In this document: piece after piece, positions 1 to 31,007 of the stretch
Layout of the letters: each line of letters begins with the position of its first letter
Numbering within the stretch: the stretch's first letter is position 1
DNA from: a virus
Length of the DNA stretch: 32,824 bases
IMG/VR virus record: IMGVR_UViG_3300010970_000108
Coordinates: 1-32,824 of that record
Reading direction: 5' to 3' (one strand)
Translations under genes and position numbers: made by a program
Notes under the pieces: model-generated
The model's database searches: none
What the model saw: the letters and a program-made list of their open reading frames with translations, nothing else
Told to the model about the DNA's origin: nothing

Positions 1-55
1 ACTTCTCAAGTGCAGTCATTTCTTCAAAAGATTTTACCTTCTCTTTAGGTTGCTC
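1..55. repeat. 55-bp direct terminal repeat, left copy (identical to 32770..32824); marks circular closure of the contig
   Basis: Bases 1-55 are letter-for-letter identical to the last 55 bases. A minus-strand ORF stays open and in frame across the junction. Confidence 0.97.
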
Positions 56-511
56 AATGCTATTATTGGCAATAGTTTCAACTAATGAAAACATTTGCTT
101 CAATGATTCAGATTGAGTTGCGATTAACTTCGCTTGTGCATCGATTGTTTTCTTTAAATCAACAATGTCTTTGTTAACCTCGGACATCTGCAATGGAAGT
201 TTCTTCATTTCTTCAGGAACTTCTGCAACAACTGCTTCTTTCTCAACACCAACGATTAAGCCTTTAGAAACTTCAATCTTTGTTCCATCTTCAAGCAAAT
301 GATACCCATCGGGTGCAGGCTCTCCATTTAGTTGAACCTGTCCACCGATTTCGACCTTATCGATACTTACGATAGTGCCATCTTTCAACTTGTAGTCTGC
401 GAATACTTGACCTGCTCCAACTGGTGTTGGTACTGGTACTGGTAATGGTTGCTCAGGCATATCTCCGAACAACATGTGTTTTATCTTTTCTACCGCTTCT
501 TTAGGTGACAT
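1..511 (-). CDS. Putative scaffolding protein, N-terminal ~170 codons; the gene wraps the contig junction and ends at 32747
   Basis: ATG at 511. I checked the frame codon by codon and found no stop down to base 2. It continues through 32769 to a TAA at 32749..32747. The N-terminus is Pro-rich and the C-terminal half is coiled-coil-like (KDIVDLKKTIDAQAKLIATQSESLKQM). It lies between the protease-like and capsid genes. It is missing from the ORF track because it runs off the edge. Confidence 0.5.
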   Translation of the reverse strand, partial: MSPKEAVEKIKHMLFGDMPEQPLPVPVPTPVGAGQVFADYKLKDGTIVSIDKVEIGGQVQLNGEPAPDGYHLLEDGTKIEVSKGLIVGVEKEAVVAEVPEEMKKLPLQMSEVNKDIVDLKKTIDAQAKLIATQSESLKQMFSLVETIANNSIEQPKEKVKSFEEMTALEK

Positions 512-533
512 AATAGTTCTTTATTTATTATAG

Positions 534-5023: not shown

Positions 5024-6162
5024 TGAAATTGTGTTTTAGTGGTGTTACCGAATTCAACATCAAGAGTTAAGTTAATCAACCCATCGACAATGTGTTCTTT
5101 AAATTCGTAGTTTGTCGCTGATACTACCACTGGGTACAATGTGCCTGCATCCTCAATGAAAACTTGAGGTGATGTTACCAACTGCGCAAGCCATTGATAC
5201 TCGGCATCAGATAGCCAATCCGTATTAATACGTAGTCTTTCTTTAATTCTTCCTGCAAACTCAGTCTTTTGTTGGTACATGGTACTTCCTGATTTCACAC
5301 TAACAACCCCAGCACCACTAACACGATATCCTAATTGATTGTATGCTTTGCGTTCAACATCAAAAAAACGCTTTGATACCTTGTTAAATACCATTGACTC
5401 GTAACCGCCTAACTTGTTCAGGAAGTGTGCAGTGTAATTGCGATACATCCCAGTACAAAGAATATTGACATTATAAGTAACCCCACCGAATGCCACAGTG
5501 TAAGATGTTGATGATGAAGTAAAGTTTCCAGCGTAATCTACATTTATCGCACCTGGTGAGATATTAAGAATCTGCAAAGTATTGGCTGCGGTTGGTGTGA
5601 TTGTCTTAGTCCTTGTGGAAGTACCACCAGTAATGACCACATTAAATGATGCGGTTGTTTCGCTAAAGTATGGGATGAAGTAGTTAGCATTAGCGAAAGT
5701 TAAGTTTATCGTTGTCGGTCTATCCGTTGCAGGTACATCATCATAATTTCCCAAAATCGTAAAGTCATTGATTCTGCCGTTGTAGTGGTTGAAGTAAGTC
5801 CTTGTGGAATCAGTTAATACAACTGCGCCAACCGTACCTGAATATTCTTCCCTGATCTTGATGACTACCGATAAAGACCATGATCCTTCACCAAGTTCTT
5901 GAGCCAAAATGCCAGTTCCCGTTGGTGCTAACTGAACCGCCACGTATTCACGCACTACGTTAGAGAAGTCCATAATCCCACGATTAGTTGTAGGATTCGG
6001 AAAGTATTTACCAGTGAATTTCAATGCGCCATTAATCCAAACTTCACCAACATATTTATAATTTGGATATGTTGTAGGATTAGCAGCATGTGCATCGTAA
6101 GCCACGTAAACTAACGAGTCATTTACTGATGAATATACTGGAGGAGTTGATTCAAATGTCAT
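5020..6162 (-). CDS. Virion structural protein, role unknown
   Basis: 380-aa ORF coupled by 4-nt overlaps to both neighbours. T/N/G/Y-rich beta-type composition. Confidence 0.3.
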   Translation of the reverse strand: MTFESTPPVYSSVNDSLVYVAYDAHAANPTTYPNYKYVGEVWINGALKFTGKYFPNPTTNRGIMDFSNVVREYVAVQLAPTGTGILAQELGEGSWSLSVVIKIREEYSGTVGAVVLTDSTRTYFNHYNGRINDFTILGNYDDVPATDRPTTINLTFANANYFIPYFSETTASFNVVITGGTSTRTKTITPTAANTLQILNISPGAINVDYAGNFTSSSTSYTVAFGGVTYNVNILCTGMYRNYTAHFLNKLGGYESMVFNKVSKRFFDVERKAYNQLGYRVSGAGVVSVKSGSTMYQQKTEFAGRIKERLRINTDWLSDAEYQWLAQLVTSPQVFIEDAGTLYPVVVSATNYEFKEHIVDGLINLTLDVEFGNTTKTQFQ

Positions 6163-6779
6163 GGATATAAATTATTTATAATGTCAATTTTAGTTGCTAT
6201 TGCTAACTCACTTTCAATGTATGAGTTAATTTCATCGGTTGCATCACGCCAAAAGTGTGTGGGCTTGATACCACTACGTTTAATCCCAGCAGCAACCGAA
6301 AGGATGGTTTTTGTTTCAAGTGATTTCATCTTCATACCTCTGCGTTCTCTTGGTGTAACTCCAACCTTCACATTTCTTGCCGATTGTCCTTCACGATTAA
6401 TCCACTCCTTAAGTGAATTGTACATCTTAGTTCCTTCCTTGGTTCCCTTTGTCTTGAACTTAAACCTACTACCTCTATCAATTTTCCAACCGTTTACACC
6501 TTCGTCTTGATATGTCGCGTAGTCAGGTGCAGTGATACCGATAGAATAACCAGTATCGGTCTTTGTTATCTGCGTAGCTTGAATGTCATCAATCATGCTA
6601 CCACTTGAAACAACATCTTTATTTGTTGCGCTTTCATGTAGTAGTCCAACATAGGCAGCAGCAATGTTGACTAACGTATTTTCAATGTCTGATAAATTAA
6701 CCGCCTGATAATCATCACCATCCAAAGTATTCAAGTCAATGAACCCACTATCAACCGCTTCGTGTTGTGCTTGTGTCAT
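6159..6779 (-). CDS. Structural protein with weak HK97 gp10-like (head-tail joining) resemblance
   Basis: 206 aa. Segments APDYATYQDEG and KPTHFWRDA recall the HK97 gp10 family pattern. The call is weak. Confidence 0.3.
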   Translation of the reverse strand: MTQAQHEAVDSGFIDLNTLDGDDYQAVNLSDIENTLVNIAAAYVGLLHESATNKDVVSSGSMIDDIQATQITKTDTGYSIGITAPDYATYQDEGVNGWKIDRGSRFKFKTKGTKEGTKMYNSLKEWINREGQSARNVKVGVTPRERRGMKMKSLETKTILSVAAGIKRSGIKPTHFWRDATDEINSYIESELAIATKIDIINNLYP

Positions 6780-7432
6780 TTGTTCAAGTATTTTTGATAG
6801 GATTGCTCACTTTTTAGATATGCCAACGCATTAAATGCCTGAATTATCGGAAGGTCATAGGCTTCATCTAACTTGATGCCTTCATATTGCGCAACTTCTC
6901 TTGCTGAATAAATCCATCCGTATTGTTCAATAAATGGATGAGGTTTTTCCATCTTGCCATCATCCTCAACAACTTCATCCGATTCGAATAAACCTTTGTA
7001 AGATGCCAACAACTCAGCAAATGATTGTAGGAAGGTCGTATAGTCGCTTAGCAAGTGCCTAACGTTCTTTTTGAGTAGTAAGTCTGCTTTAACCTTATGC
7101 GGTCTTGAATCGTTCCATATTGACGCACAAACAAGGTGCATTGAATCAATCTCGCCCTGCTTTAAAAAGTGCTGAACCTCGATGAATTGCCCAAATGAGA
7201 TAGCGTAAGCATCCGTTTGTAGTTTAATGCGACCTAATAATGGTTTGCTATTTAGTTTCTTGAATTCCTTGGTAACCTTATTCGAATACTTGATGAACTT
7301 TTTTGGTTGCATATTATCAACTTCATCATAAGATAGCCCCCACATATCGCAAACGATTAGCGCAATTTGCACAACCTCGTCAGTTTCTTGATGGTAAAAT
7401 GATGCTATCCTTTGGTATTGCGCAAGGTTCAT
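6776..7432 (-). CDS. Hypothetical protein, first gene of the structural operon
   Basis: The ORF track starts it at 7507. That extension runs through the terminator hairpin, its U-tract and the promoter-like motif. The ATG at 7432 (MNLAQYQ...) lies just downstream of them, so I prefer it. Confidence 0.45.
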   Translation of the reverse strand: MNLAQYQRIASFYHQETDEVVQIALIVCDMWGLSYDEVDNMQPKKFIKYSNKVTKEFKKLNSKPLLGRIKLQTDAYAISFGQFIEVQHFLKQGEIDSMHLVCASIWNDSRPHKVKADLLLKKNVRHLLSDYTTFLQSFAELLASYKGLFESDEVVEDDGKMEKPHPFIEQYGWIYSAREVAQYEGIKLDEAYDLPIIQAFNALAYLKSEQSYQKYLNK

Positions 7433-7435
7433 ACT

Positions 7436-7465
7436 TATATATAGTTGATTTTGAAGTTTTGTTTC
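7436..7465 (-). promoter_or_regulatory. Candidate phage late promoter, copy A: GAAACAAAA-N11-ACTATATATA
   Basis: On the minus strand, GAAACAAAA (7465..7457), an 11-nt spacer, then ACTATATATA (7445..7436), ending 3 nt before the ATG at 7432. The same two blocks with the same spacing occur at 30921..30950. Confidence 0.5.
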
Positions 7466-7466
7466 T

Positions 7467-7498
7467 AAAAAAAAATCCCCGATGTAGAAACAACGGGG
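7467..7498 (-). terminator. Intrinsic terminator after terL
   Basis: Minus strand reads CCCCGTTGT-ttct-ACATCGGGG (9-bp stem, one mismatch), then A plus nine T. It lies 30 nt downstream of the terL stop. Confidence 0.75.
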
Positions 7499-7527
7499 TA
7501 GTACCATATAACCAACACTAATAACAA

Positions 7528-8721
7528 CTAATAATCTTCATCTGCAAAACTATACTCGCCTGAGTTCTCATACTGGCTCAACTTATTCAATCCCACATAT
7601 CTAAGGCAATCAATCGCATGATTCATCACATCTTCAGGTGCATTTAACGCTTTGCCTTCCCTATCCTTTGCCCACTTATACTGCCTTAGTTCCTTTATCA
7701 AATTTAGTGAATTTTTCGTTACCACTATGTCATATTGTTGCAATCGGTCTATTGAAGCCTTAACTGAATCACCTCCCTTTCTTGCCGCTTCAACATAAAA
7801 GCCAGCATTCGTAACATCTTGAATTGATTTAGGTTCAGAAGAATCAGCCACAATACATTGTGAAGTGCTAACGCCTAACTGTTTCAACATTGCCACTATG
7901 TCGGAATTTAACATTCCAGTTTTATAAAATAGTTCATTCACATAAATTTTGCCATTATACCTATATGTTTCAATAAATGCACTCGGATCATTAGTGAAAC
8001 CCCAATCCAACCCGTATGAAATAAACTCCGCTTCCTTCGGGATGGCATCACATTGAACCCAGTTGTTGAATACTACACCTTCCAAAGAACCTATCTCACC
8101 CAATCCATAAACACGATACCAATTAGTCCAGAATCCACTGCCTTGGTCTGCTTTCTGCTTTGCCTTATTAATAAAGTTCAAAGCCGATTCAGGGCAAGCC
8201 TCATTATCAAGGTAGTTGATTATCAGGAAGTCAACATCAGAATCATTTATGAGTTCATCATGAAACCAAAACGGATTTGTAGGATTCCAATCTAAGTAAA
8301 CACCTTTCTTTGTCCTTGATGCTAACTCCGTATAACTATGGAAGTTCATGTTATTAGCTTCATTCATATAAAGCCAATCACGTCTTGCACCACGTAGTTT
8401 TGCATCGTTATCAGCACTAAAGAACTCTATTTGAGAACCATTTGCAAAAGTATATTTGAAATCCGTAGCGTTCCACCTATCATCGAAGAATCTCCCAGTT
8501 TCAACCATGATTTTCTTAAAGTCCTTCATTGCACCACGTTTAAGATGTGGGATTGATTCAGCGACAACACTAATTTCAGATAATGGTATTTCAGATGCAA
8601 TATCTATTAATATGGGAATTATCGCAAATGTCTTTCCGGCACTGCTTCCGCCCTGTACCCCACGGCAAAACTTTTTAAGTTTGAGTATCTTGTTTATTGC
8701 GGTTGTACGGATAAACATCAA
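7528..8721 (-). CDS. terL: Terminase large subunit (PBSX/XtmB-like family)
   Basis: 397 aa. N-terminal Walker A GGSSAGKT. Size and layout fit PBSX-type large terminases. It overlaps a small-terminase-like gene upstream by 4 nt. Confidence 0.85.
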   Translation of the reverse strand: MMFIRTTAINKILKLKKFCRGVQGGSSAGKTFAIIPILIDIASEIPLSEISVVAESIPHLKRGAMKDFKKIMVETGRFFDDRWNATDFKYTFANGSQIEFFSADNDAKLRGARRDWLYMNEANNMNFHSYTELASRTKKGVYLDWNPTNPFWFHDELINDSDVDFLIINYLDNEACPESALNFINKAKQKADQGSGFWTNWYRVYGLGEIGSLEGVVFNNWVQCDAIPKEAEFISYGLDWGFTNDPSAFIETYRYNGKIYVNELFYKTGMLNSDIVAMLKQLGVSTSQCIVADSSEPKSIQDVTNAGFYVEAARKGGDSVKASIDRLQQYDIVVTKNSLNLIKELRQYKWAKDREGKALNAPEDVMNHAIDCLRYVGLNKLSQYENSGEYSFADEDY

Positions 8722-9161
8722 TCGTGTTTCACATCAGGGAATAACTTCTGCTCTACCTTAACATCATTCTGTACTTTCTCAACAAGTCCATTTAAACGCT
8801 GAGTAATCGAAGGATTGTAGATGCCTGCCATACCACCAGCTATTTGATCCTCACGTATAATTCGCTTAATGCGTGAACAGATATTCGAATATTCCTCATA
8901 ATTACCCTTTGTATTGCAGAAATAATCATCAGTATCTTTTACAATTCCCTTATGAAAACAATAGTTTGAGAATCCTTCTAAGGTTAAAGGTTTTTCTTTA
9001 GGTCTTTCCACTTGTGTTGCCATTGCTCCAACCCAATCACGCACATGAAAAGGTTTAGCCTTAACCGTTTCAACATACTCTTGAAATAACTCGTACATTT
9101 TCTCAGGTGATTCAATGTATTTATTGCTTTTTGTTAGAGGTGTTTTCTTTTTTTGTGGCAT
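8718..9161 (-). CDS. terS: Terminase small subunit (putative)
   Basis: 147 aa, immediately upstream of and overlapping terL. Basic N-terminus, then YIESPEKMYELFQEYVE...KPLTLEGFSNYC, which is typical of small-terminase DNA-binding domains. Confidence 0.55.
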   Translation of the reverse strand: MPQKKKTPLTKSNKYIESPEKMYELFQEYVETVKAKPFHVRDWVGAMATQVERPKEKPLTLEGFSNYCFHKGIVKDTDDYFCNTKGNYEEYSNICSRIKRIIREDQIAGGMAGIYNPSITQRLNGLVEKVQNDVKVEQKLFPDVKHD

Positions 9162-9354
9162 TGTCTAAACGGTTTTTATTTGTATCTACAAACTTTACAA
9201 TATAGTTCACACAAGACTGGCATCCTTTCCAGGCGAAATCTCCATTCGGTGAAATCTTCTGCGCCAATGCTACTAACTCATTCATCTCGTTTTCACTTGG
9301 ATGAACATCGATTCCGAGCCTGACTCGTTCAAATAAATAATCAAAGTGTTTCAT
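9121..9354 (-). CDS. Hypothetical protein
   Basis: 77-aa ORF between the sigma-like gene and terS. It overlaps both (14 nt and 41 nt). Contains a CQSC pair. Confidence 0.4.
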   Translation of the reverse strand: MKHFDYLFERVRLGIDVHPSENEMNELVALAQKISPNGDFAWKGCQSCVNYIVKFVDTNKNRLDNATKKENTSNKKQ

Positions 9355-9814
9355 TTATGTAAATTTTAATTTTCTTCTTAGCTTTTTTAACCATCTGAAA
9401 TATTGTTGAATAAGGAATCCCAGTAATCTCACCGACCTTTCGATATGTTTTATGCTCTGCATATAGTACAAGAACCTTCTCGCTAACCCAATTCAATTTA
9501 TTCAAAGGTACGATTATTTGTTCTTCTTGTTCTTCTGATGGATGTACAAAGTCATTAGTCAACACCTCACGCATTTTAATGCGGTTAAATTCGGAGTTCT
9601 GCCAAGTTACCATGTTGTACATCATCTTAACCACGTAACCGATAAAACGACCTTCAGAATGCAATTTAATAATAACCGATTCATCCTTGTTAAGTAATTC
9701 TAAAAAACAATGTTGAAGTAAATCATCCTGCAACTCAGTTGGCTTTATTCTCGACAAGCATTCCCTAAGTTCATCACTTCGGTAAAGGTCCTCGATAATT
9801 TGCCTTGCAGTCAT
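9341..9814 (-). CDS. Phage-encoded sigma-70 family (ECF-like) sigma factor
   Basis: 157 aa with a two-domain layout. Region-2-like: DDLLQHCFLELL...FIGYVVKMMYNMV. Region-4 HTH-like: KVLVLYAEHKTYRKVGEITGIPYSTIFQMVKKAKKKI. It aligns by eye with RpoE architecture. Confidence 0.65.
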   Translation of the reverse strand: MTARQIIEDLYRSDELRECLSRIKPTELQDDLLQHCFLELLNKDESVIIKLHSEGRFIGYVVKMMYNMVTWQNSEFNRIKMREVLTNDFVHPSEEQEEQIIVPLNKLNWVSEKVLVLYAEHKTYRKVGEITGIPYSTIFQMVKKAKKKIKIYINETL

Positions 9815-9818
9815 TGAA

Positions 9819-9826
9819 CAAAGTTA
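9819..9826 (-). promoter_or_regulatory. Possible Bacteroidota -7 box (TAACTTTG) upstream of the sigma gene
   Basis: Minus strand reads TAACTTTG-TTCA-ATG, which matches TAnnTTTG. It is only 4 nt from the ATG, so it would give a leaderless transcript or may be coincidental. Confidence 0.25.
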
Positions 9827-9840
9827 CTCATAGTTTATAC

Positions 9841-10188
9841 AAAGTAAAAAAGTAAAAGTAAAATCAACTTACATAGAAATATACATAAATACTATTGTAT
9901 TTACTATATATATAATGTTTTTTATATTCCTAATGTTTTTCTTTACTAATTTACTTTCACTAAAAAAACGGTTTACTTTTTTACTTTGTTCATTTTTGCC
10001 GTGTTAACTATTTAGAAATCAATTAGTTAACTATCATTTTAAAAGTAAAATAAAAGTAAAATAGTAAAAAAATAATTTTACTTTGGCTTTACTTATTTAC
10101 TTTTTTGCTTAACATATTACAATTTTTTCTAATATCAAATTTTGAAAGTAAATTTTTTATTTTACTTTTTTACTTTTGAATTTACTTT
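9841..10188. repeat. Array of 8-mer AAAGTAAA / TTTACTTT repeats in alternating-orientation clusters; candidate origin iterons or regulator-binding array
   Basis: Exact forward copies start at 9841, 9849, 9855, 10042, 10053 and 10145. Exact reverse copies start at 9950, 9972, 9980, 10077, 10096, 10161, 10169 and 10181. Near copies at 9942, 10061 and 10088. Two GTTAACTAT direct repeats (10003, 10026) sit in the centre. This is the largest non-coding tract in the genome. Confidence 0.8.
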
Positions 10189-12462
10189 CTAAAGCATTTT
10201 TTGGTATGAACCATGACCTAATCTATCAAATAAATCATTACTATTTTTTAACCACATCTTTATTGTAGGGCCTTTAACATTATATTTTGCACCAATTTCA
10301 ATGGCAGTCTTTGTGCTGAATGCTTCCGTTAGTTCTTTATAGATATTAAGATAAGGTTGTTTTAATTTATCCAAAGGCGTTTCAGGACTGAGTATCTTCA
10401 ATGCCTTTAGCATATTTCCTAAGAAGTATTCCGTTAACCTGATGGCTCGTTCTACTGCTGATTGTTGAACCACGTTTGATCTATTATCCAAATCATCACA
10501 ACATTGTAAAATGAGTGCAAACCTTAAACAATAGGCTTGATACTTGGCAATTATACCCTTTGCATTCTCATCTTGCGATTTATTATAATACAAGTTTTTA
10601 TAATCATGCCATGACTTGTAAAGTGTTAAAGCATCACTACTTAATGTGTACTTGTCTTTAATATCGTTATCCCTAAATATCAATAGTTTATCAAAAATTC
10701 TATGAACTTGTTCCTTAATATACTCAGGACAACTAATGATATCAAATGATGGCTTTGGTTCTGATTCAGGAAACACAAATAAAAATCTATGATAGAACCC
10801 GTTGAACTGGTTATCATTCTGCGAAAGAATATCCATGATACCTGGTTGAATACCGCCAACGATTCCCATTGAATAGTCGATAACTTTTCTATCATCTGCT
10901 GAAATCCTTTGCTGGAATACCGTTTCACTTGACCACATTTGTAGCCATTTTTGATTATCATCACCAGGTTTATATTGGCTCATTCGCTTTATGAATCCAG
11001 CAAGTTCATCGGCAACCAAACAACAACCTTTAGTATTGTATTGCAAAACATTAACAACCGTTTCCATTGTTGCATCATCAATAATCATCTGACTTAATAT
11101 TGGCTTGATAGGTAATGGCTTGTTTTTATCTTTCTTATCAACCCTTAGTAGTTCTTCGCTATATGATGCAACTTTCTTTCTATATGCCTTGTAATTTTCA
11201 TCATCAATGTTTTTTAGGTAGTTGTAAGCAATTCCCATCGCAGGACTCTTACCACCTCCAGCATGAGCCACAATAGCCATGTATAAGTTTGTGCGTAGTT
11301 TGTAACCTTGCAAGGCTTCAAGGTAACAAGTATTCCCGATGGCGGTGCTTAATGCCGAAAGCATAAACCCTGCAATATATTCGTTTTGGATTCGATGGCT
11401 CTTAATGTAATCTTCTATCTCCTTCGGGAAGATGTCATAAGGAAACAACATCCTATCTTTCAATATTGGTTGATGCTCAATAGGTTTTTGGTTTATTTCA
11501 ATTCCAATACTATCAGCAATACATTGAATTTCATCTAATGTTTTTTTCCAATCTTTGCCATTCTTATAATAAATTATCCTTGATGGTGTTAATACCCATG
11601 ACCTATCTCCGTTACCTTTGGCATCTGCCCATGATGGAAATCCTTGTAATGATGTTGTAAATAACAATACCTTGCGTGAACTGAAATAAACTTTAGCTGA
11701 GTAGTTAGTAAGTGAACCCCTGCGCAAGTAAGCAGTAAATTTATCCTTTGATTTATATCTGAAATCCTTTGATTCATACAAACTCATTTGATTAAGCATC
11801 TCATCGAATGCCTCATCAGTTATTTCACGATCAAACAATAAACAACTATTTTCATATTGTTGCGGATATTCAACTGGGTAAAAAGTATTATTGATTTCTT
11901 CCTTGTACTTATTGAATAAACTACCCGTACTGATTAACAAATCGTATTCATCATCAGTTAGTTCTTCCAAATCCTCAAAAGAATTATGAAACATATCGTA
12001 GCCAGGTGTAGGGCTGCAATAAGACAACAACCCACCAGTATAGACTGCAATCACTTCTTTACCCGATTCACTTGCTGCCAAAGATATCTTATGTGTAAGT
12101 TTTGGGTATTTGATGTAAACATGAAAGCCTTTGTTTCTTGTGGATTCAATGCAGACTTTCCTTAGTACATCAGGATTAGTGGCTTCAACTATATTGAACC
12201 AATCGTTAAACGATACCGTTCCATCTTCGTTCTTAGTATCAAAGTCAATTGTACCAAATGGAGGAAATAGTTTAAGTGCAATTCCGTTTGAATTATCGAT
12301 TAAGTCAATCCATTTTTCTAAGGTTGTTTCATTCCATTCAGATTCTAAAATAGTTGAATGCGCAATGATATGGCTTGATGCAACTTTACTGCTTGAATCC
12401 CATTTGATGGGTAAAGGCTTTAACCCTAATTTTACCAGTTCTTTAAAGATGTTGATGTTCAT
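10189..12462 (-). CDS. Replicase: N-terminal primase-polymerase (Prim-Pol) fused to a DUF3987/D5-like P-loop helicase
   Basis: 757 aa. Prim-Pol motifs GTIDFDTKNEDG (DxD) and NKGFHVYIKY. Central Walker A AHAGGGKSPA, in a context typical of DUF3987 helicases. Confidence 0.7.
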   Translation of the reverse strand: MNINIFKELVKLGLKPLPIKWDSSSKVASSHIIAHSTILESEWNETTLEKWIDLIDNSNGIALKLFPPFGTIDFDTKNEDGTVSFNDWFNIVEATNPDVLRKVCIESTRNKGFHVYIKYPKLTHKISLAASESGKEVIAVYTGGLLSYCSPTPGYDMFHNSFEDLEELTDDEYDLLISTGSLFNKYKEEINNTFYPVEYPQQYENSCLLFDREITDEAFDEMLNQMSLYESKDFRYKSKDKFTAYLRRGSLTNYSAKVYFSSRKVLLFTTSLQGFPSWADAKGNGDRSWVLTPSRIIYYKNGKDWKKTLDEIQCIADSIGIEINQKPIEHQPILKDRMLFPYDIFPKEIEDYIKSHRIQNEYIAGFMLSALSTAIGNTCYLEALQGYKLRTNLYMAIVAHAGGGKSPAMGIAYNYLKNIDDENYKAYRKKVASYSEELLRVDKKDKNKPLPIKPILSQMIIDDATMETVVNVLQYNTKGCCLVADELAGFIKRMSQYKPGDDNQKWLQMWSSETVFQQRISADDRKVIDYSMGIVGGIQPGIMDILSQNDNQFNGFYHRFLFVFPESEPKPSFDIISCPEYIKEQVHRIFDKLLIFRDNDIKDKYTLSSDALTLYKSWHDYKNLYYNKSQDENAKGIIAKYQAYCLRFALILQCCDDLDNRSNVVQQSAVERAIRLTEYFLGNMLKALKILSPETPLDKLKQPYLNIYKELTEAFSTKTAIEIGAKYNVKGPTIKMWLKNSNDLFDRLGHGSYQKML

Positions 12463-12665
12463 AATTCGTTGTTTATTGCCTTAGCAATTTTAGACATGGA
12501 TTCTTGAAACTCACCATCTTGTCTTAAAAAGATTGCAATTTGATTTAAACTTTCTGCTTTCCAAGTTTGGATTGCTAATTTAAAGCATTCAGCCAAAGGT
12601 AACTTAGTAATTTTTTGAATTTAGATTGCATCGTGTTGCAATCCATCAAGTATAGATTTACGCAT
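12459..12665 (-). pseudogene. Small ORF interrupted by an in-frame TAA (MRKSILDGLQHDAI*IQKITKLPLAECFKLAIQTWKAESLNQIAIFLRQDGEFQESMSKIAKAINNEL)
   Basis: Hand translation: ATG at 12665, TAA at 12623..12621, then the frame stays open for 53 codons to a TGA that overlaps the replicase ATG (ATGA). No ATG follows the stop until 12 codons from the end. Confidence 0.4.
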
Positions 12666-12671
12666 AAAGAT

Positions 12672-12719
12672 AAAAAAACCTGATTAGGTTCACGCGTGCC
12701 GGCAATCCCCCAATCAGGT
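12672..12719 (-). terminator. Intrinsic terminator after the VRR-NUC gene
   Basis: Minus strand reads ACCTGATTGGG ... CCTAATCAGGT (10 of 11 positions paired, about 20-nt GC-rich loop), then seven T. It lies about 50 nt downstream of the stop at 12772. Confidence 0.55.
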
Positions 12720-12771
12720 ATATAAAATGATTTAATTGTAATTATCCGGCACGATAACTATTACTGCAAAT

Positions 12772-13188
12772 TTACAACAAATTATCGTATAACATAAAAA
12801 ACTCATCAACACTTGAACAAAATTCATAAATTCCGAAAGCCTTGCGTTCCTTGATTTGCTCTGCAAGTTGAAACTCTGATGGCTTGTCCCTACCGACCTT
12901 AATTTCAATCATTACTGATTTTCCTTTAACGGTAGCGGATATGTCCGCAGTTCCTTTCCTTGTGCTTGACTTTATCCATTTATCACCGACCTTGCGACCT
13001 GATACGTTAATTCTTGTTGCTCGATGTCCGAGCCAGTTCAGGTAGTTACAAATGAACGTAGTCAAGCCATTCGCCTTAGTAACCACTGGCATCTTCGGTT
13101 CAGCGTAGAATCCATCTTTAAACGCAGTCGGGTAGTTTTGGGCAAACCATATTTTGTGGGCTGCTGAGTAGCGTGCTTTATTTGTCAT
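12772..13188 (-). CDS. VRR-NUC / PD-(D/E)XK family nuclease (possible junction resolvase)
   Basis: 138 aa. GTADISATVKGKSVMIEIKVGRDKPSEFQ fits the D...E-x-K...Q signature of VRR-NUC nucleases. Confidence 0.55.
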   Translation of the reverse strand: MTNKARYSAAHKIWFAQNYPTAFKDGFYAEPKMPVVTKANGLTTFICNYLNWLGHRATRINVSGRKVGDKWIKSSTRKGTADISATVKGKSVMIEIKVGRDKPSEFQLAEQIKERKAFGIYEFCSSVDEFFMLYDNLL

Positions 13189-13486
13189 TCAACATAGTTT
13201 TAATTTTCTCAAGATAAAGGCTCAAATCCATTGCTTCTTCCTGCGCATGATTAATCCAATCAAGCAAGTTTAAATCTTTGCGGTCCAAAGTTGTCTTGTA
13301 CTTCTTGATTCCTAATTCAGAACGTTGTTTGTACTTTTCGATTAGTGATTCAAGGATTGAGTCTTGTTGTGTCAAAATAGTATTTATTGCCTCGGTTAAT
13401 ACTTTAGGTTCGAGCATTGAAATTTCATCTCCTAATCTCCATAGTTGATAATGTCTTAAAATATTTGTTGCTTCTTGGTATGTCAT
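13178..13486 (-). CDS. Hypothetical protein
   Basis: 102-aa helical ORF overlapping both neighbours. No diagnostic motif. Confidence 0.4.
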   Translation of the reverse strand: MTYQEATNILRHYQLWRLGDEISMLEPKVLTEAINTILTQQDSILESLIEKYKQRSELGIKKYKTTLDRKDLNLLDWINHAQEEAMDLSLYLEKIKTMLNDK

Positions 13487-13683
13487 TTTTTATAAGTTTT
13501 ATTGTAGTAATCTTCAAAATCTTTATAGTTACTACCGTAATCAAGTCCATCCATCCAAGCATTTTCACATTCTTCTTTGTGCTTTTCTTTAGCTTGTTGA
13601 ATCATTTCAAGTTCATCCTTCATTAAAGGTATTCCACTTTCTTCTAATTTCTCAACTAACCATTCTACCGATGTTTGTGCCAT
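13483..13683 (-). CDS. Hypothetical protein (start moved to internal ATG)
   Basis: The track ORF starts at 13779, but its first 32 codons overlap another small ORF and look like an F/Y/K-rich artefact. MAQTSVEWLVEKLEE begins at 13683. Confidence 0.35.
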   Translation of the reverse strand: MAQTSVEWLVEKLEESGIPLMKDELEMIQQAKEKHKEECENAWMDGLDYGSNYKDFEDYYNKTYKK

Positions 13684-13694
13684 GTTATTATTTT

Positions 13695-13814
13695 TTATAA
13701 AATACCTTTTTGAACTAAATTTAATATTATCATTGAACTTATACCACCTATAAAAAAACCTAAAATAAAGCCATTCCAATAATATTTATTTTTATTATTG
13801 TTTCTCGAACTCAT
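13695..13814 (-). CDS. Possible 39-aa membrane peptide
   Basis: Hand-translated MSSRNNNKNKYYWNGFILGFFIGGISSMIILNLVQKGIL, with one hydrophobic helix. Below the ORF-track size cutoff. Confidence 0.25.
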   Translation of the reverse strand: MSSRNNNKNKYYWNGFILGFFIGGISSMIILNLVQKGIL

Positions 13815-13950
13815 AAATCATTTTATTTATTTGGTTATTAATTAATTCCCATTCTAACAAGGTTAATGGTTTTTTACTTTGTAACTGAAAAAATATATTC
13901 CAGTATTCTTGTCCTTGTTCTAAGTTAATTACTTGTTCTTGTATTTTCAT
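13795..13950 (-). CDS. Possible 51-aa protein
   Basis: Hand-translated MKIQEQVINLEQGQEYWNIFFQLQSKKPLTLLEWELINNQINKMIYEFEKQ. It fills an otherwise unannotated gap and starts 2 nt after the upstream stop. Confidence 0.3.
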   Translation of the reverse strand: MKIQEQVINLEQGQEYWNIFFQLQSKKPLTLLEWELINNQINKMIYEFEKQ

Positions 13951-13951
13951 A

Positions 13952-14299
13952 TTATATAATTTTATCATCCTTAATTAAAACCTCTACCGTCTTCCCTGCT
14001 AAGATATCCTCTATCATATCCTCTAACATTTGCCTTTGGTCTGGATTCAGCAATGCTACTCGTTCGGTGATGGCTGGAACGCTGAACGCATCCGATTCGA
14101 TTTCATACTTTATACCTTTGCGAACCTCATCATCAAAATGAGGATAGGTTATAATATCCTTGAATATCCACTTCACTCGCCTTGAGTAGTCGCTGAAAAC
14201 AACTGCACCCCGTGTATTAGGTGCAGCCCTGATGAAATCTTGCATGAATTCATTTGCAAGTTTAAGATGTTGGATGGCTTGTACTATGTTGCTTCTCAT
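13952..14299 (-). CDS. Hypothetical protein
   Basis: 115-aa ORF whose start codon shares 1 nt with the methyltransferase stop codon (14299). No motif recognised. Confidence 0.4.
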   Translation of the reverse strand: MRSNIVQAIQHLKLANEFMQDFIRAAPNTRGAVVFSDYSRRVKWIFKDIITYPHFDDEVRKGIKYEIESDAFSVPAITERVALLNPDQRQMLEDMIEDILAGKTVEVLIKDDKII

Positions 14300-15309
14300 T
14301 AGAATAGTGTTGTTTGTTTAATTGATTCGTTAGCAAATCTTAAATGAGCATCTTTAAGATTAATTATAGCTTGCTTAAAATAACTATCCTTTAATTCTAC
14401 TCCAATGGCTTTTCTTCCCAATGATACGGGACTATAAACTTCTGAACCTACTCCCATAAATGGCGTTAAAACAACTTCATTAGGATTAGAATACAATTCT
14501 ATTATTCTGTCAATTATATCTAATTGTAAAGGATGTACATGCTTCTCATCATCTTCTTCTCTGCTATCTCTAAAAGGTAAAATATTATCATTTCTAATAT
14601 CATCCCAAACCGATGATGCGTAACGTTGCCAGATAATTTGACTTAATTTATTAGTTAAATGGTTCTGATCTAAATTATCGCTATCAGCATATTTTATTTT
14701 AATATGTTCCCAGTTACCATACTTTTTTTCCATTGCAGGTAATAACGGTGTTTCTCCGTAATATCTTTTGAATCCTTTTGGATTAGTAACTTTTACTTTG
14801 TTTTCTCCAATTTTTTTAAATACTAACAAATAATCAGGAATTGCAGTAAAACACATTGTTGAGTCCTCAGCTATATTTTTATGCATCAAACTTCTAACCA
14901 TAGTCCTCATTCTAACTTCCAAAGGTTCTTTCCAAATTGTAATACGATTGTGTAAATTAAATCCGTACTTTTTATGTAATGCAATTATTTCATGAGGAAA
15001 GTCATACAATATATGAGCAGTTGTATCAGTTAAAATATCTTGACAATGAACTACATTAATTCTTCCAGGTTTAGTAACTCTTGCCATTTCAGCAACTAAA
15101 TACTCATACTGATTCATAAATTCTTCTTTAGAATTGCAATTACTAAAGTCTTTTTCAGAACTAGAATAATTATATAGTCCTGCAAATGGAGGAGAATAAA
15201 CTGATAAGTCAATAGAATTGTTATCCAATGTACTTACTACATCCATGCAATCACCGTTATAAATTGCATAATTTTCTGTAATTAACTGATCTTTTACTTT
15301 GTTTAACAT
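14299..15309 (-). CDS. DNA methyltransferase, N6_N4_Mtase family (beta-class amino-methyltransferase)
   Basis: 336 aa. Catalytic motif IV SPPF (IDLSVYSPPFAGLYNY) is N-terminal. AdoMet motif I (VLTPFMGVGSEV, preceded by HPLQLDII) is C-terminal, which is the beta-class order. Confidence 0.8.
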   Translation of the reverse strand: MLNKVKDQLITENYAIYNGDCMDVVSTLDNNSIDLSVYSPPFAGLYNYSSSEKDFSNCNSKEEFMNQYEYLVAEMARVTKPGRINVVHCQDILTDTTAHILYDFPHEIIALHKKYGFNLHNRITIWKEPLEVRMRTMVRSLMHKNIAEDSTMCFTAIPDYLLVFKKIGENKVKVTNPKGFKRYYGETPLLPAMEKKYGNWEHIKIKYADSDNLDQNHLTNKLSQIIWQRYASSVWDDIRNDNILPFRDSREEDDEKHVHPLQLDIIDRIIELYSNPNEVVLTPFMGVGSEVYSPVSLGRKAIGVELKDSYFKQAIINLKDAHLRFANESIKQTTLF

Positions 15310-15319
15310 GTTGTTGTTT

Positions 15320-16678
15320 TTAAAATTTAGGTTTTATTATTTCTTTTGTAAATTCTTTTTTTGACAAATCAACTAATCCGTTGATATTGCTTTGAATTAA
15401 ATTATTGAACTCAATAGCTTTGTTAGTTTTGTAAAGTAAAGTATCAATTACTCTTTTTTGTCCATCAGATAAAACTAAATCAACCGTTACTTTTTTAGTT
15501 TGTCCAAACCTCCAAAACCTTCTAATTGATTGATAATATTGTTCATAACTCCATGTAGGAAAATAAACCGTATGGTTACAATGTTGCCAATTTAATCCGA
15601 ATGATGTTATTTTTGGCTTAGTTATAATTCTTTTGATATTTCCATTTGCAAAGTTTAACAAAATATCTTCTTTTTTTTCGATTGTCATACCTCCTTTTAA
15701 TTGAACTGCATCTTTATCAAGCTCGTTTAACAAGTCGCCTTCATCATTAAAATTGCACCAATAAACTGAAGTTTTGTCTTTTGTCAATTCAACTGCTTTT
15801 TCACATCGTTGATTGAATGTAGATTTTTGTTCCTCTCTAACTTCACTCATTGTTTTTGCAATTCCGTTAAAAAGCATAATTTGATTATTAATTATCCAGT
15901 TATTTTCATTTTTAACGTAAACTTTATTTTCAATCAGTTCAGGTAAAAAATATTTTTCATCAGAAAACCCAAGATCACTAGGTTTTTTAACTGATATGCT
16001 CCATTGATTGAGCCAGCTAAAGAACTCATTTTTTGCATGAGGTTTTAAATACCATTTTGTTCCAATGTCCTGAGGTCTAACATTGTTTTCATTATTGGCA
16101 AAAAATTTAGTTAGCATATCCATATATGGAAAGTACCCTAACGCTTCACTGCTTGTACCAAATTCAACGTAATCATTCGGCGCTGGTGTTGCAGTTGATA
16201 AAAATCTGTAAGGAATTTTTTTCATGAATGAGGTAACTGCCCATTTTGTTTTTCCATCGAAATTTTTAAGTATTGAACTTTCATCTAAAATAATACCTAC
16301 AAAATCATTTTCGTTAAAATAATGCAATCTTTCGTAATTGCATATAACTATTTTTTTTGTATGCTTACCATCTTTTGAATACTCAATGTCATCAATTCCA
16401 AGTTTTTGTGCTTCTAAAATAAATTGAAAAGCTACTGCCAAAGGTGTTAAAATAAGTACCTTTTTGTTTGTATGCTGAATTACGTTTTTTGCTATTGATA
16501 ACTGAATCAATGTCTTGCCTAATCCAGTATCCGCAAATATTGCTATCCTTCCCTTTTTAATTGCTTTTTCAATTATGTATTTTTGAAAATCAAATGCAAT
16601 GTCAGGAAAATATTTTGCATCAAATCCACTATCACTAAGTGAATGTTTTTTGTTTTCTAAAAATTCGTTGTAGTTCAT
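15320..16678 (-). CDS. SNF2/DEAD-like superfamily 2 helicase
   Basis: 452 aa. Walker A ADTGLGKTL, motif II DESSILKN, and a C-terminal helicase region (FGLNWQHCNHTVYF, RFWRFGQTK). Confidence 0.75.
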   Translation of the reverse strand: MNYNEFLENKKHSLSDSGFDAKYFPDIAFDFQKYIIEKAIKKGRIAIFADTGLGKTLIQLSIAKNVIQHTNKKVLILTPLAVAFQFILEAQKLGIDDIEYSKDGKHTKKIVICNYERLHYFNENDFVGIILDESSILKNFDGKTKWAVTSFMKKIPYRFLSTATPAPNDYVEFGTSSEALGYFPYMDMLTKFFANNENNVRPQDIGTKWYLKPHAKNEFFSWLNQWSISVKKPSDLGFSDEKYFLPELIENKVYVKNENNWIINNQIMLFNGIAKTMSEVREEQKSTFNQRCEKAVELTKDKTSVYWCNFNDEGDLLNELDKDAVQLKGGMTIEKKEDILLNFANGNIKRIITKPKITSFGLNWQHCNHTVYFPTWSYEQYYQSIRRFWRFGQTKKVTVDLVLSDGQKRVIDTLLYKTNKAIEFNNLIQSNINGLVDLSKKEFTKEIIKPKF

Positions 16679-16694
16679 TTGTTGTTGTTATTTA

Positions 16695-16717
16695 AGCCCT
16701 GACCATTTGCCAGGGCT
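16695..16717. other. GC-rich hairpin between the SSB-tail gene and the helicase gene
   Basis: AGCCCTG (16695..16701) pairs with CAGGGCT (16711..16717). No U-tract follows on the transcribed minus strand, so it is not a canonical terminator. Confidence 0.3.
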
Positions 16718-16731
16718 ATTGGTTTTTCTAA

Positions 16732-17004: not shown

Positions 17005-17045
17005 AATAAATCAGGGTATCGGTTGCCTGAGCCGTTGTTGTTAAC

Positions 17046-18637: not shown

Positions 18638-18649
18638 GGTAGTTGTTGT

Positions 18650-19348: not shown

Positions 19349-19367
19349 TGTTGTTTTTTTGTTGAAA

Positions 19368-20003: not shown

Positions 20004-20025
20004 TGTTAATAGTTTTGTTGAATTG

Positions 20026-20033
20026 CAAATATA
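20026..20033 (-). promoter_or_regulatory. Bacteroidota-type -7 box TATATTTG (leftward early promoter)
   Basis: Minus strand TATATTTG matches TAnnTTTG. It is 22 nt upstream of the ATG at 20003, in the only divergent intergenic region. Confidence 0.45.
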
Positions 20034-20092
20034 CATAATTAATTGAAATAAAAAATATTTTTTAAACTTGATAAACATATTGTTTTATTTAT

Positions 20093-28577: not shown

Positions 28578-30571
28578 TACTTTTGTTTTTTAATTACTAT
28601 GTGCTTTACCCACTCATGTCTACATTGATATTCAATCACTCCGTTATTGTTCCAAAATCCACCACATCTTTTAAATACTGAATACCCTACACGTTGAGAA
28701 ATATCTTGAATGTTTTTAATACTCCATACTTTACCAGCCTTGCTAAGTTCAACCAACTTCACACAAAACTTTCTTGATGTTGGTAACAAGTCTTTGCCTT
28801 CTGCAATACTCCGCTTCTCATAGGTATAAACTACCTTAATTTCAGGCAGTTGCTTCGGTGGAATCCTTTCAGTAACCTTGCGGATAGTACCATCTAATTT
28901 AATTGCACCATTCTTAATAAGGTTAGTTATTATATCAGTTACAATATATCTTTCAAGTTTCAAAGCTTCTGCAATCTGATTGTTATCAAGTTCAGGTTGT
29001 TTTTTCAACAACTCTAAAATATTCATTTCTCTTTCGGTGTAATCTGCGAAGGATTCGTGAACTACGAAATCATCATCCGAGCCATCATAAGAAGATGAAC
29101 TAATGATGTCAAACTCATCTCTATTGTATCCGCACTCGGCAAACATATTCGCCAGGTATTCATCATCATCTTGTGCGCTGAATTGTTCTTCAACACCTAA
29201 GTATTGATTAATTTGCTCAGTTGTAAACCCATACGCTTGTAACTGAATTGCAGCTTGATTTTTCGATAGTTTACCTTGTGTGAACAAACGTACTATACGC
29301 AATAAGTTTTGTTGCTGCCTGCCGCTTATATTGACCAAGGCATCATTTCCTTGTTGGGCTTGTAGTTGTTCTGCTTGTGGTTCGTACTTACTAATATCAA
29401 TTCCCAACTTTTCAAGAACCCAAGCACGAGGTAAAAGTTCTTTAAAGTCCAAAGGATTGAGTTCAATACCTACTGGAACAATATCTTTTATCTTATATTC
29501 TACATCAATTCCTGCAACCCTTGAAAAATACTTTACAAGTGTTTCAATGTTTCTTTGCTTGTAATTAACGTAAGTACTTTTGAAGATTTCAAATGCAGTT
29601 TTTAGTTCAGTTGCGCCACCTAATTTGCCCTCTTGTTGGATGGCAAATAACATTCCGTTAGTTACGTTATGACCAGTTATAATGTTGTTGGTAATGAGGT
29701 TATCAACTTGGGTAAAATCTTCCTTAGTCATATCACTTGCACCCAAGTCATCAATGGTCGGCTTCTTTGCAGGATCATTGTTGAAGGCAATTAATAACTT
29801 CTTACCTTCCGCACCAGTAGCAGCATTTTCAAGCCTTGCTTGTATGCCTGCCTTCTTTTTTTCATCAGGTTCACCGTTGTAGAAGTTGATGAACTTAGAT
29901 GCACTAAACCCAGTCTTAGCATTGGTTAATGTATGCCTACTTACCTCGATATCAGATTCGATGTAGTTAGCAGCAGCAACCCAAGTAGGCAATGCGTATG
30001 GTGCTTTTCCGCAACGATATTCTTTGTAATAAAATATTGATGTTTCCTTTATTGTTGGATGGAATGCTGGGTATTCTTTCTCAGCCTTAACTAAGTTATT
30101 CTCCCATTTCTTTTTATAATAAAAACAAGTGTTGTGTTCGTTAGTCCTTATCTTATCGTAGGCAATATGGTAGTAATTGTAACCACCAATAAGTTTAGGT
30201 ATGACTTGAAAATAACATCCTCCAAAGTTTTCAATATCAAGGCAAGCCATTTTAATCAACTCATCCCAAGTTTGTTTCTCGTTGGCTTTTTTCAAGAACA
30301 ATTCACCTTGTGGATCTTCAGAACTTAAACCATTTCCTAATATGTAAACGCACTTACCATTAATGATTGCGTTATGCTTTGCAGATTTGTTGTAAAGCCA
30401 TAACAAGTAAGTAGGATAATCGTTTCTATCACCGAAGGGAATATAATCGTATCCTCTTTTTTCTTGCATTGTAGGAATACGTGAATCTGCAAATTCCATG
30501 CTTGAAACTTGCATAATATCACCTTGATTGGTATTAACCTGCGTATCCTTTATATTGAGTCGTTGGCGCAT
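28577..30571 (-). CDS. Portal protein with a long C-terminal extension (acidic linker, winged-helix-like segment, Cys/His MuF-like tail)
   Basis: 664 aa. The N-terminal ~400 aa look portal-like (YPTYLLWLYNKSAKHNAIINGKCVYILGNG). The C-terminus has NILELLKKQPELDNNQIAEALKLERYIVTDIITNLIKNG and GGFWNNNGVIEYQCRHEW. An alternative start at 30514 avoids overlap with the upstream gene. Confidence 0.6.
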   Translation of the reverse strand: MRQRLNIKDTQVNTNQGDIMQVSSMEFADSRIPTMQEKRGYDYIPFGDRNDYPTYLLWLYNKSAKHNAIINGKCVYILGNGLSSEDPQGELFLKKANEKQTWDELIKMACLDIENFGGCYFQVIPKLIGGYNYYHIAYDKIRTNEHNTCFYYKKKWENNLVKAEKEYPAFHPTIKETSIFYYKEYRCGKAPYALPTWVAAANYIESDIEVSRHTLTNAKTGFSASKFINFYNGEPDEKKKAGIQARLENAATGAEGKKLLIAFNNDPAKKPTIDDLGASDMTKEDFTQVDNLITNNIITGHNVTNGMLFAIQQEGKLGGATELKTAFEIFKSTYVNYKQRNIETLVKYFSRVAGIDVEYKIKDIVPVGIELNPLDFKELLPRAWVLEKLGIDISKYEPQAEQLQAQQGNDALVNISGRQQQNLLRIVRLFTQGKLSKNQAAIQLQAYGFTTEQINQYLGVEEQFSAQDDDEYLANMFAECGYNRDEFDIISSSSYDGSDDDFVVHESFADYTEREMNILELLKKQPELDNNQIAEALKLERYIVTDIITNLIKNGAIKLDGTIRKVTERIPPKQLPEIKVVYTYEKRSIAEGKDLLPTSRKFCVKLVELSKAGKVWSIKNIQDISQRVGYSVFKRCGGFWNNNGVIEYQCRHEWVKHIVIKKQK

Positions 30572-30914
30572 ATCCTTGTTTTATTAAGTTGTTCTCAGGT
30601 TGTAGTAGCATCTTGCCACATTCAACCATGTTAAGTCCTGATGGATCTAAATTACTGCTTGATGATTGCTCATAAACCTCGTAACTAAATTGTCCTGCTT
30701 GTGCAGATGCAAATAAAGTAACGGTGTTAAATGAAAATATATTTATTCTTGTTGGGTATTCTGATGTATCAGAAGTAGAATTTACGTTGATCTTGTATTG
30801 TACTTTAGTTGATACATTGGTAAACACAAATAAATAATACGGATTCGTTAACGTTGTTGATTCCGTTAACGTTACCAAAGTATCTGATTGACTATTTATC
30901 GTGTATAGTAGCAT
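30534..30914 (-). CDS. Hypothetical virion protein
   Basis: 126-aa ORF immediately downstream of promoter-like motif copy B. Confidence 0.4.
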   Translation of the reverse strand: MLLYTINSQSDTLVTLTESTTLTNPYYLFVFTNVSTKVQYKINVNSTSDTSEYPTRINIFSFNTVTLFASAQAGQFSYEVYEQSSSSNLDPSGLNMVECGKMLLQPENNLIKQGYAPTTQYKGYAG

Positions 30915-30920: not shown

Positions 30921-30950
30921 TATATATAGTGAAAATCACGTTTTTGTTTC
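30921..30950 (-). promoter_or_regulatory. Candidate phage late promoter, copy B: GAAACAAAA-N11-ACTATATATA
   Basis: On the minus strand, GAAACAAAA (30950..30942), an 11-nt spacer, then ACTATATATA (30930..30921), ending 6 nt before the ATG at 30914. It directly follows a terminator, as copy A does. Confidence 0.5.
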
Positions 30951-30954
30951 AAAT

Positions 30955-30982
30955 AAAAAAACCCAGTATAGAAATACTGGGC
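30955..30982 (-). terminator. Strong intrinsic terminator after gene 31008..31520
   Basis: Minus strand reads CCCAGTAT-ttct-ATACTGGG (8-bp stem), then seven T. Confidence 0.85.
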
Positions 30983-31007
30983 TTCAAATAACAACAACTG
31001 TTTTTTA

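Follow-up and report, generated by a model that had tools for sequence, protein, structure and literature searches.

A divergent ECF-like sigma factor and its putative late promoters in an uncultivated phage family with a probable Bacteroidota host

Which genes does a phage control with a sigma factor of its own, and how would the sigma gene itself be switched on? This question is raised by the IMG/VR virus record IMGVR_UViG_3300010970_000108, which was analysed from position 1 to 32,824 (the whole stretch of 32,824 nt is termed the window). On its minus strand, an open reading frame (ORF) at 9341-9814 encodes a 157-aa protein resembling sigma factors of the extracytoplasmic function (ECF) type, and an exact bipartite motif, GAAACAAAA-N11-ACTATATATA, is found at 7436-7465 (site 1) and 30921-30950 (site 2). 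An earlier note, made from the letters of the window alone, had proposed that protein and motif form a self-encoded late-transcription circuit with leaderless mRNAs. From our follow-up, we consider a two-tier cascade quite likely, in which host sigma-A would drive the operon of the phage sigma factor and the phage sigma factor in turn three late operons. A phage-encoded late sigma factor with cognate late promoters is a known phage strategy, of which this locus is a well-supported, previously unannotated candidate example.

Both copies of the motif are exact and are the only two in the window; allowing three mismatches adds no further site. The chance expectation is 0.06, and two copies were obtained in none of 100 shuffled sequences. 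As the earlier note had described, each copy directly follows an intrinsic terminator, and the hairpins with their U-tracts fold at -12.2 kcal/mol (z -2.6) before site 1 and at -16.0 kcal/mol (z -6.4) before site 2. That the copies end 3 and 6 nt before the ATG codons at 7432 and 30914 was likewise confirmed. The spacers of the two copies differ at about 8 of 11 positions and the half-sites are identical.

A third, weaker site, GAAACAAAT-N11-ACTATAATAA at 525-554 on the minus strand, had been missed by the earlier note. It lies 13 nt 5′ of the ATG at 511, which starts a 177-aa scaffold-like gene, and was detected by the search for relaxed motif versions that the note had suggested. In this search, a position weight matrix (PWM) built from the sites of the closest relatives scored 31.9 and 24.6 for the two exact copies and 13.6 for the third site (523-556, minus strand). 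Maximal scores in shuffled sequences averaged 7.4 and reached 14.7, and the next score in the window below the third site was 9.8. Taken alone the third site thus appears marginal, yet it is kept in relatives. The match scoring 9.8 (32550-32583) overlaps the capsid start codon, lies inside the shuffle range and was rejected. The three accepted sites are all on the coding strand and precede head, portal and tail operons only. The PWM scan gave no copy in the replication region (10189-20078), in the plus-strand block or 5′ of the sigma gene. The late circuit of the earlier note is therefore to be narrowed: the structural operons would lie under the motif, and the packaging genes would be co-transcribed with the sigma gene instead.

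The two exact copies could in principle have arisen by chance, or by duplication of a cassette made up of terminator and spacer, and play no regulatory role, and the loops of both terminators are indeed similar (TTTCTA). We regard this as very improbable, since identical half-sites enclose dissimilar spacers, the third site is without any terminator, and the sites are kept by position across relatives with half-sites specific to each lineage. An interpretation of the motif as a pac site or duplicated cassette was rejected on account of the third site and the variable spacers.

Conservation was followed in about 100 related loci from IMG/VR, retrieved with the sigma protein, the terminase large subunit (TerL) and a 664-aa portal-like protein; some of these loci are near-full-length with 32-33 kb. 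Throughout, the bipartite motif is found in constant register and always 5′ of the genes orthologous to those that follow sites 1, 3 and 2 in the window, namely the 218-aa, the scaffold-like and the 126-aa gene. The half-sites are conserved and their spacing of 16 nt is rigid, and the spacer sequence is variable, with just 31-75% conservation per position. In 186 kb of type-A loci, the closest relatives, GAAAC-N16-CTATA has 27 matches against 0.43 expected, each of them in coding orientation and at one of the three orthologous sites. None lies within other genes, so that the occurrence at random frequency inside genes of related phages, named by the earlier note as a possible objection, is not what was found. 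Relatives keep site 1 at TerL identities of about 66-90%, and sites 2 and 3 at identities of the 664-aa protein down to about 40%. Genes inserted after TerL do not separate the motif from the orthologue of the 218-aa gene, which it still directly precedes. The final codons of the protease gene lie within the -35 half of site 3; they encode E-T-N, and S-T-T where the motif becomes TCAAC. Because the motif stays with its gene despite insertions, and protease codons change with it, the motif itself is under selection.

Each genome uses the version of its own lineage at all its sites. Lineage A has GAAACAAA-N13-CTATA(A/T)TA (core GAAAC/CTATA), lineage B GAAACAAA...CCAC(T/A)TA (core GAAAC/CCAC(T/A)TA), lineage C (G/T)CAACAA...GCCACA(A/T) (core (G/T)CAAC/CCACA), and lineage E, represented by locus L054, CAACA...GATACAAT (core CAAC/ATACAAT). 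The distant lineages D1, D2 and F show AAACAAAA-N12-GTCTTATA, TGTAAA...TATAT and TTTGACCA-N16-CTAT(T/A)TA, respectively, and in D and F the motif ends 3-5 nt before the ATG. Homologues of the sigma gene are located 5′ of the gene for the terminase small subunit (TerS) in every lineage with that region on the contig; those of group D were recognised with profile E-values of 1e-5 to 1e-10, and the synteny of sigma and TerS is retained in D and F.

Sequence anatomy and conservation of the motif are thus direct observations, and so is its covariation with the sigma protein. Between lineages C and E, the helix-turn-helix (HTH) of region 4 is 85-88% identical (TGIE(Y/F)SGICKTI) and the -35 half-site CAAC is common to both, while the N-domains are 42% identical and the -10 half-sites differ. 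Between B and C, a segment resembling regions 2.3/2.4 is 70% identical (NMVRWER(G/S)SF) and the -10 half-site CCAC is common, while the recognition helix is 40% identical and the -35 half-site differs (GAAAC vs NCAAC). In these pairs the covariation is modular, the -35 half-site tracking region 4 and the -10 half-site the region-2-like segment. That promoters at three separate places should change together with the corresponding half of a chimeric sigma protein is difficult to attribute to linkage alone.

The 157-aa protein itself matches the Pfam model Sigma70_r4_2 above its cutoff (26.8 vs 25.7 bits, E 4.1e-6) and, weakly, PHROG 1740 “sigma factor” (E 1.3e-6). The sigma70-ECF model TIGR02937 covers residues 17-151 with its positions 16-163 of 165 (E 7.7e-10) and matches the C-domain alone with an E-value of 1.7e-6. 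A HMMER search of 1.84 billion cluster representatives retrieved 407 relatives of 150-200 aa; among 69 sampled family representatives, Sigma70_r4_2 was recognised in four and Sigma70_r2 in one. The family profile matches SigW of B. subtilis in hmmsearch (E 0.002) and in hhalign (probability 83.8%, E 7.9e-6), the latter co-linear over 148 columns, i.e. the full length. It pairs DDLLQHCF with EDIAQEAF of SigW, the region 2.2 motif, and YVVKMMYN with WLYRIATN of the 2.3/2.4 helix. In the AlphaFold model (mean confidence, pLDDT, 74.5), two helical bundles are joined by a low-confidence linker (residues 85-99), and the two-domain protein is devoid of regions 1.1 and 3. Foldseek against the PDB returned ECF or other sigma factors for about 30 of the top 35 matches; SigW, sigma-E and M. 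tuberculosis SigH matched best by profile and fold, and the C-domain of the model superposes on sigma-E region 4 with 1.3 A over 51 columns. Against the PDB, a profile made from close homologues gave only HTH noise.

As judged from these alignments, the protein is a divergent two-domain ECF-like sigma factor, with region 4 solid and region 2 recognisable at profile level only. Searches of 50,697 cultured-phage records by tblastn gave no match at E <= 0.01, and among 185,579 reference genomes there was a single weak match (21% identity, in a metagenome-assembled genome of the Polyangia) and no prophage host. Standard annotation mostly misses this divergent sigma family, which has no homologue in cultured phages. 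An exceptional form was seen in locus L053, where the linker between the two domains of a 189-aa sigma homologue (66-635) is extended by an insertion of about 32 aa; in this locus, a motif could not be recognised 5′ of the 218-aa gene orthologue.

The sigma gene, a 77-aa ORF, TerS and TerL follow each other in this order as overlapping ORFs. The sigma gene therefore heads the packaging operon, in agreement with the earlier note. The 77-aa ORF is conserved at 42-89% identity in all sigma-bearing lineages and has no family match in Pfam, PHROGs or NCBIfam. It may encode a cofactor of the sigma factor or an anti-sigma factor; a zinc-binding anti-sigma factor is unsupported, as the protein has a single CxxC and no HxxxCxxC motif.

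The position of the motif relative to the start codons allows a prediction of the transcript ends. Counted from the G of GAAAC (position 1), the -10 half-site begins at position 22 and TATAAT occupies positions 23-28. The A of the start codon is then found at positions 34-35 (type A) or 33-35 (type C) for site 1, at 34-37 for site 2 and at 43-44 for site 3. Transcription by sigma-70-family factors starts 6-8 nt after the -10 hexamer. The geometry of ECF scaffolds is consistent with this distance (PMC6411747). Since +1 is expected at about positions 34-36, the mRNAs from sites 1 and 2 would be leaderless or have a leader of 0-4 nt, and that from site 3 a leader of about 10 nt. Late mRNAs from sites 1 and 2 are probably leaderless or near-leaderless, and the proposal of the earlier note is thereby limited to these two sites. 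Leaderless mRNAs are a minority of 5.5% in F. psychrophilum (PMC9723704).

Several indications concern the host. A Shine-Dalgarno (SD)-like motif precedes one of 43 genes, and positions -14 to -9 comprise about 65-75% A and almost no G; such A-rich, G-poor starts without SD are typical of Bacteroidota (PMC6847099). Genes inserted in relatives carry Bacteroidota-type TTTG-N21-TAnnTTTG promoters, and the nearest cultured relatives by TerL are phages of Flavobacterium psychrophilum (50% identity). From these features, the host is probably a member of the Bacteroidota. The annotated terminase region of phage FpV9 showed no comparable sigma or terS arrangement, and no cultured phage was matched in a megablast search with window positions 6000-14000.

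Bacteroidota sigma-A does not use promoters of the TTGACA/TATAAT type (PMC6847099). Its -7 box extends from -12 to -5, with the transcription start 4-5 nt further (PMC6847099, PMC9723704). Such a box precedes the sigma gene of the window as TAACTTTG-ttca-ATG, and TAnnTTT(G/A) is found directly 5′ of the sigma start in 30 of 32 distinct relatives, 3-5 nt away in 27 and exactly 4 nt in 19. Because of this geometry, the sigma mRNA is predicted to start at its own start codon and to be leaderless. A further plausible host-type box is located before the plus-strand block (20093-20100). In the genome as a whole, neither TAnnTTTG (47 found, 48.6 expected) nor TTTG-N17-23-TAnnTTTG is enriched, so that the early promoters of the earlier note can be argued only case by case. 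The three late sites contain no TAnnTTTG box. With the host-type box before the sigma gene, the switch from host to phage sigma suggested by the note is plausible.

Instead of the phage protein, a sigma factor of the host might read the motif, either an alternative ECF factor or the sigma-70-type primary factor of a host outside the Bacteroidota, and the targets of the phage sigma would then lie elsewhere. In favour of this are the resemblance of type A sites to TTGAAA-N18-TATAAT, the AAC at -35, which is a general trait of ECF sigma promoters (PMC5758882), and a host assignment that is itself inferred. On the other hand, TTG is not conserved at -35, where TAG, GTG and CAG are also present, and the -10 equals TATAAT in type A, types B and C having CCAC. 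Sigma-70 consensus sites are not enriched (62 vs 62.7 expected; 49 vs 60.7), and a generic sigma-70 promoter scan did not flag the late sites. Moreover, the host indications favour Bacteroidota, the version of each lineage appears at three dispersed sites and tracks the domains of the phage sigma, and the PWM scan of the window gave no alternative candidate target motif for the latter. We consider reading by a host sigma unlikely, slightly more so than the activator discussed below.

In the cascade that we favour, host RNA polymerase with sigma-A would start at TAACTTTG, 4 nt before the sigma ATG, and produce a transcript of sigma, 77-aa ORF, TerS and TerL that stops at the intrinsic terminator. 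The 157-aa protein would act as a minimal two-domain sigma factor on host core RNA polymerase, its C-terminal region-4 HTH reading GAAAC(AAA) at -35 and its N-terminal region-2-like domain CTATA(A/T)T at -10, exactly 16 nt downstream. It would thereby fire the three late promoters at 7436-7465, 525-554 and 30921-30950, which cover all head, portal and tail genes. We infer sigma activity, binding to core polymerase, start sites and timing from the sequence comparisons, which speak strongly for this reading.

A number of observations weigh against this scheme. The covariation comprises few independent lineage contrasts, and it concerns a sigma gene and promoters that are in physical linkage. Lineages A and B both have GAAAC and their recognition helices are just 33% identical, although both read TGIP(Y/H)x(S/T)(I/V)(F/Y). 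The whole protein scores 38.6 bits with TIGR02937, under the curated cutoff of 42.9; the N-domain alone reaches E 0.025 with this model, its sole NCBIfam match. In the profile and structure check proposed in the earlier note, region 4 was the part that exceeded a Pfam cutoff; Pfam Sigma70_r2 gives no match to the protein, and Foldseek with the full model is not significant (E 0.028 or worse). For the N-domain, Foldseek ranks sigma-E region 2 first, with E 1.5 and a TM score of 0.43. The note's ECF-like promoter applies to the -35 half with its AAC in GAAAC; the -10 half-sites CTATAAT, CCACAAT and ATACAAT are TATAAT-like or otherwise different from the CGT type of ECF promoters. As type A loosely resembles TTGAAA-N18-TATAAT, a sigma-70-like reader would be conceivable if the host were assigned wrongly. 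Many relatives use GTG as the start codon of the sigma gene, and GTG is a poor leaderless start in E. coli, which concerns the leaderless part of the scheme.

The uncertainty about the N-domain also bears on an explanation in which the sigma-like protein is a DNA-binding late activator of the RinA/ArpU/LtrC kind that binds the bipartite site and recruits the host holoenzyme. Like rinA, its gene is located directly 5′ of terS (PMC3152322). The HTH alone passes a curated threshold, the likeness of the N-domain to region 2 is weak, and an activator reading DNA in two parts would covary equally with its sites. Against this stands the co-linear full-length alignment to ECF models and SigW, including D-L-x-Q-x-x-F of region 2.2 and the 2.3/2.4-like Y-x-x-K/R-x-x-x-N. 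Furthermore, no RinA/ArpU family match was obtained in Pfam, NCBIfam or PHROGs (E <= 1), the late sites are without a host -7 box that the holoenzyme could use, and a -35/-10/+1 geometry agrees with how the half-sites are spaced and how far they lie from the ATG. Such an activator therefore seems rather unlikely to us.

Among known systems, gp36 of phiEco32 is the closest functional analogue of the proposed phage sigma factor (PMC12276001). This small phage sigma combines a sigma-2-like N-domain with a sigma-4-like C-domain and uses host core RNA polymerase and a consensus of its own at later genes, with early genes transcribed by the host primary sigma; domain architecture and use of the host core are predicted here. 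Differences are the lack of detectable sequence similarity (tblastn, 50,697 phage records), the host (E. coli vs probably Bacteroidota), and the promoters, which in phiEco32 depend on the co-factor gp79 and have a single dominant element (AATGTA at -11.5), in contrast to the strict -35/-10 pair here. No partner like gp79 was identified in this phage. Cellular ECF group 4 factors (B. subtilis SigW with TGAAAC-N16-CGTA, E. coli sigma-E) share the sigma-2 plus sigma-4 architecture and the size, and ECF promoters share an AAC-bearing -35 (TGAAAC for SigW, PMC5758882), the rigid 16-nt spacer and the stringent consensus (PMC6411747). They differ by the CGT-type -10 as opposed to CTATAAT-like, by autoregulation, where the phage sigma gene has a host -7 box and no promoter with its own motif, and by a co-transcribed anti-sigma factor, of which none is recognisable here.

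As with gp55 of T4 and gp28/gp34 of SPO1, the phage sigma is predicted to redirect host core polymerase to late promoters, and the late promoter of T4, TATAAATA, has a similar A/T-rich, TATA-like -10 (PMC2988020). In T4, however, gp55 is without region 4 and depends on gp33 together with the sliding clamp, and the late promoters have no -35, whereas here both half-sites are conserved and a region-4 HTH is present. With RinA/ArpU/LtrC (PMC3152322) the phage shares a regulator gene directly 5′ of terS, predicted to control morphogenesis genes. It differs from these by the absence of a family match, by targets downstream of terL with terS/terL co-transcribed with the regulator, and by promoter-like geometry in place of operator-like sites.

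Literature searches yielded nothing on this phage family, nor on sigma factors in phages of Bacteroidota. If correct, the cascade would be the first regulatory scheme described for a widespread uncultivated family of phages of about 32 kb with a probable Bacteroidota host, and it would stand out by modular sigma-promoter co-evolution and predicted leaderless transcripts. Lineage-specific half-sites together with domain-swapped sigmas would offer a natural test of modular -35/-10 recognition. The sigma/promoter pairs could also serve as orthogonal expression parts in Bacteroidota, where E. coli-type promoters fail. The fixed distance from promoter to start codon predicts leaderless late mRNAs, in a phylum in which just about 5% of the host mRNAs are of this kind (PMC9723704).

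On a more speculative level, the family might amount to a naturally evolved set of minimal sigma/promoter pairs for Bacteroidota, each orthogonal to the others, in which sigma-2 and sigma-4 modules are swapped by recombination and the three late promoters are re-tuned half-site by half-site. Both tiers of the cascade would then be built for leaderless mRNAs, with the host -7 box 4 nt and the phage -10 6-7 nt before the starts, and these would be translated without the unusual SD-independent signals in the 5′ untranslated regions of the host. We put this forward tentatively and would give it somewhat less than even chances.

The first 55 nt of the window recur exactly, as a direct repeat, in its last 55 nt (1-55 = 32770-32824), which shows the contig to be circular and complete, with a length of 32,769 bp. 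This genome is also present in JGI sample 3300010966. The genome has a GC content of 36% and carries nearly all genes on the minus strand (Table 1). Downstream of the 177-aa scaffold-like gene lie a 56-aa ORF, a putative capsid gene of 332 aa and a 170-aa gene. The terminator after the sigma/terminase operon has its equivalent in relatives as a hairpin with a T-run and different stem sequences.

Table 1. Features of the sigma/terminase region and the predicted late operons in the window.
Feature	Position	Strand	Remarks
DUF3987 primase-helicase	12462-10189	-	
Host-type box TAACTTTG before the sigma gene	9819..9826	-	4 nt 5′ of the sigma start codon
157-aa divergent ECF-like sigma (region-2-like N-domain, disordered linker, region-4 HTH)	9341..9814	-	Profile and model evidence
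77-aa ORF	9121..9354	-	Between sigma and TerS in every case, overlapping both
Terminase small subunit TerS	8718..9161	-	PF16677, E 6.4e-10; phrog_606
Terminase large subunit TerL, last gene of the sigma operon	7528..8721	-	PF17288/PF04466
Intrinsic terminator of the sigma/terminase operon, hairpin + U9	7467..7498	-	RNA fold
Predicted late promoter, site 1, GAAAC(-35)-N16-CTATAT(-10)	7436..7465	-	A of ATG at motif position 34
218-aa gene, first of late operon 1	6776..7432	-	Identical start in JGI gene calling
XkdF-like prohead protease, end of late operon 1	534-1268	-	
Predicted late promoter, site 3, GAAACAAAT-N11-ACTATAATAA	525..554	-	-35 half overlaps the final protease codons
177-aa scaffold-like gene, 5′ part	1..511	-	Crosses the circular junction (32769 to 32747)
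Intrinsic terminator of the scaffold/capsid operon	30952..30985	-	RNA fold
Predicted late promoter, site 2, sequence of site 1 except spacer	30921..30950	-	A of ATG at motif position 37
126-aa gene, first of late operon 2	30534..30914	-	Operon via 664-aa portal-like and tail genes to ~22293

The 664-aa protein of late operon 2 (28577-30571, minus strand) matches portal PHROGs with its N-terminal half and MarR/winged-helix models with residues 512-560 (PF01047, E 1.2e-5), a pairing that is unusual for a virion protein.

Rfam and tRNA scans of the window gave no match. In L014, an Rfam model for tRNA matches positions 11261-11374 with 45.6 bits, an unusually long tRNA-like gene of 114 nt that was not called by ARAGORN. 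The junction between the TerL terminator and the late promoter is an insertion hot-spot, with extra genes in several of L013-L015, L019, L022, L024, L033, L035, L042 and L048.

The intergenic region of 375 nt between primase-helicase and sigma gene (9815-10188) carries densely arranged AAGTAAA/TTTACTTT repeats, in both strands, as well as TATATATATA (9903-9914). A GTTTCAG(C/G)C block, not found in the window, lies about 60-80 nt 5′ of the sigma gene in the iteron region of L001, L003, L005, L008, L022, L024, L031, L043 and L054. Relatives have other iterons at this place (gaactttt, gtaacttt, ggtgtatttgg, tgttataaca), which apparently follow the type of primase, and the iteron-rich region is probably the replication origin. 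The primase-helicase gene is preceded by a terminator consisting of a strong hairpin and a run of seven T (~12675-12715), and after it by a host-type -7 box, TACCTTTG (12594-12601). This arrangement suggests that the host drives a replication transcript of its own, with a leader about 130 nt long.

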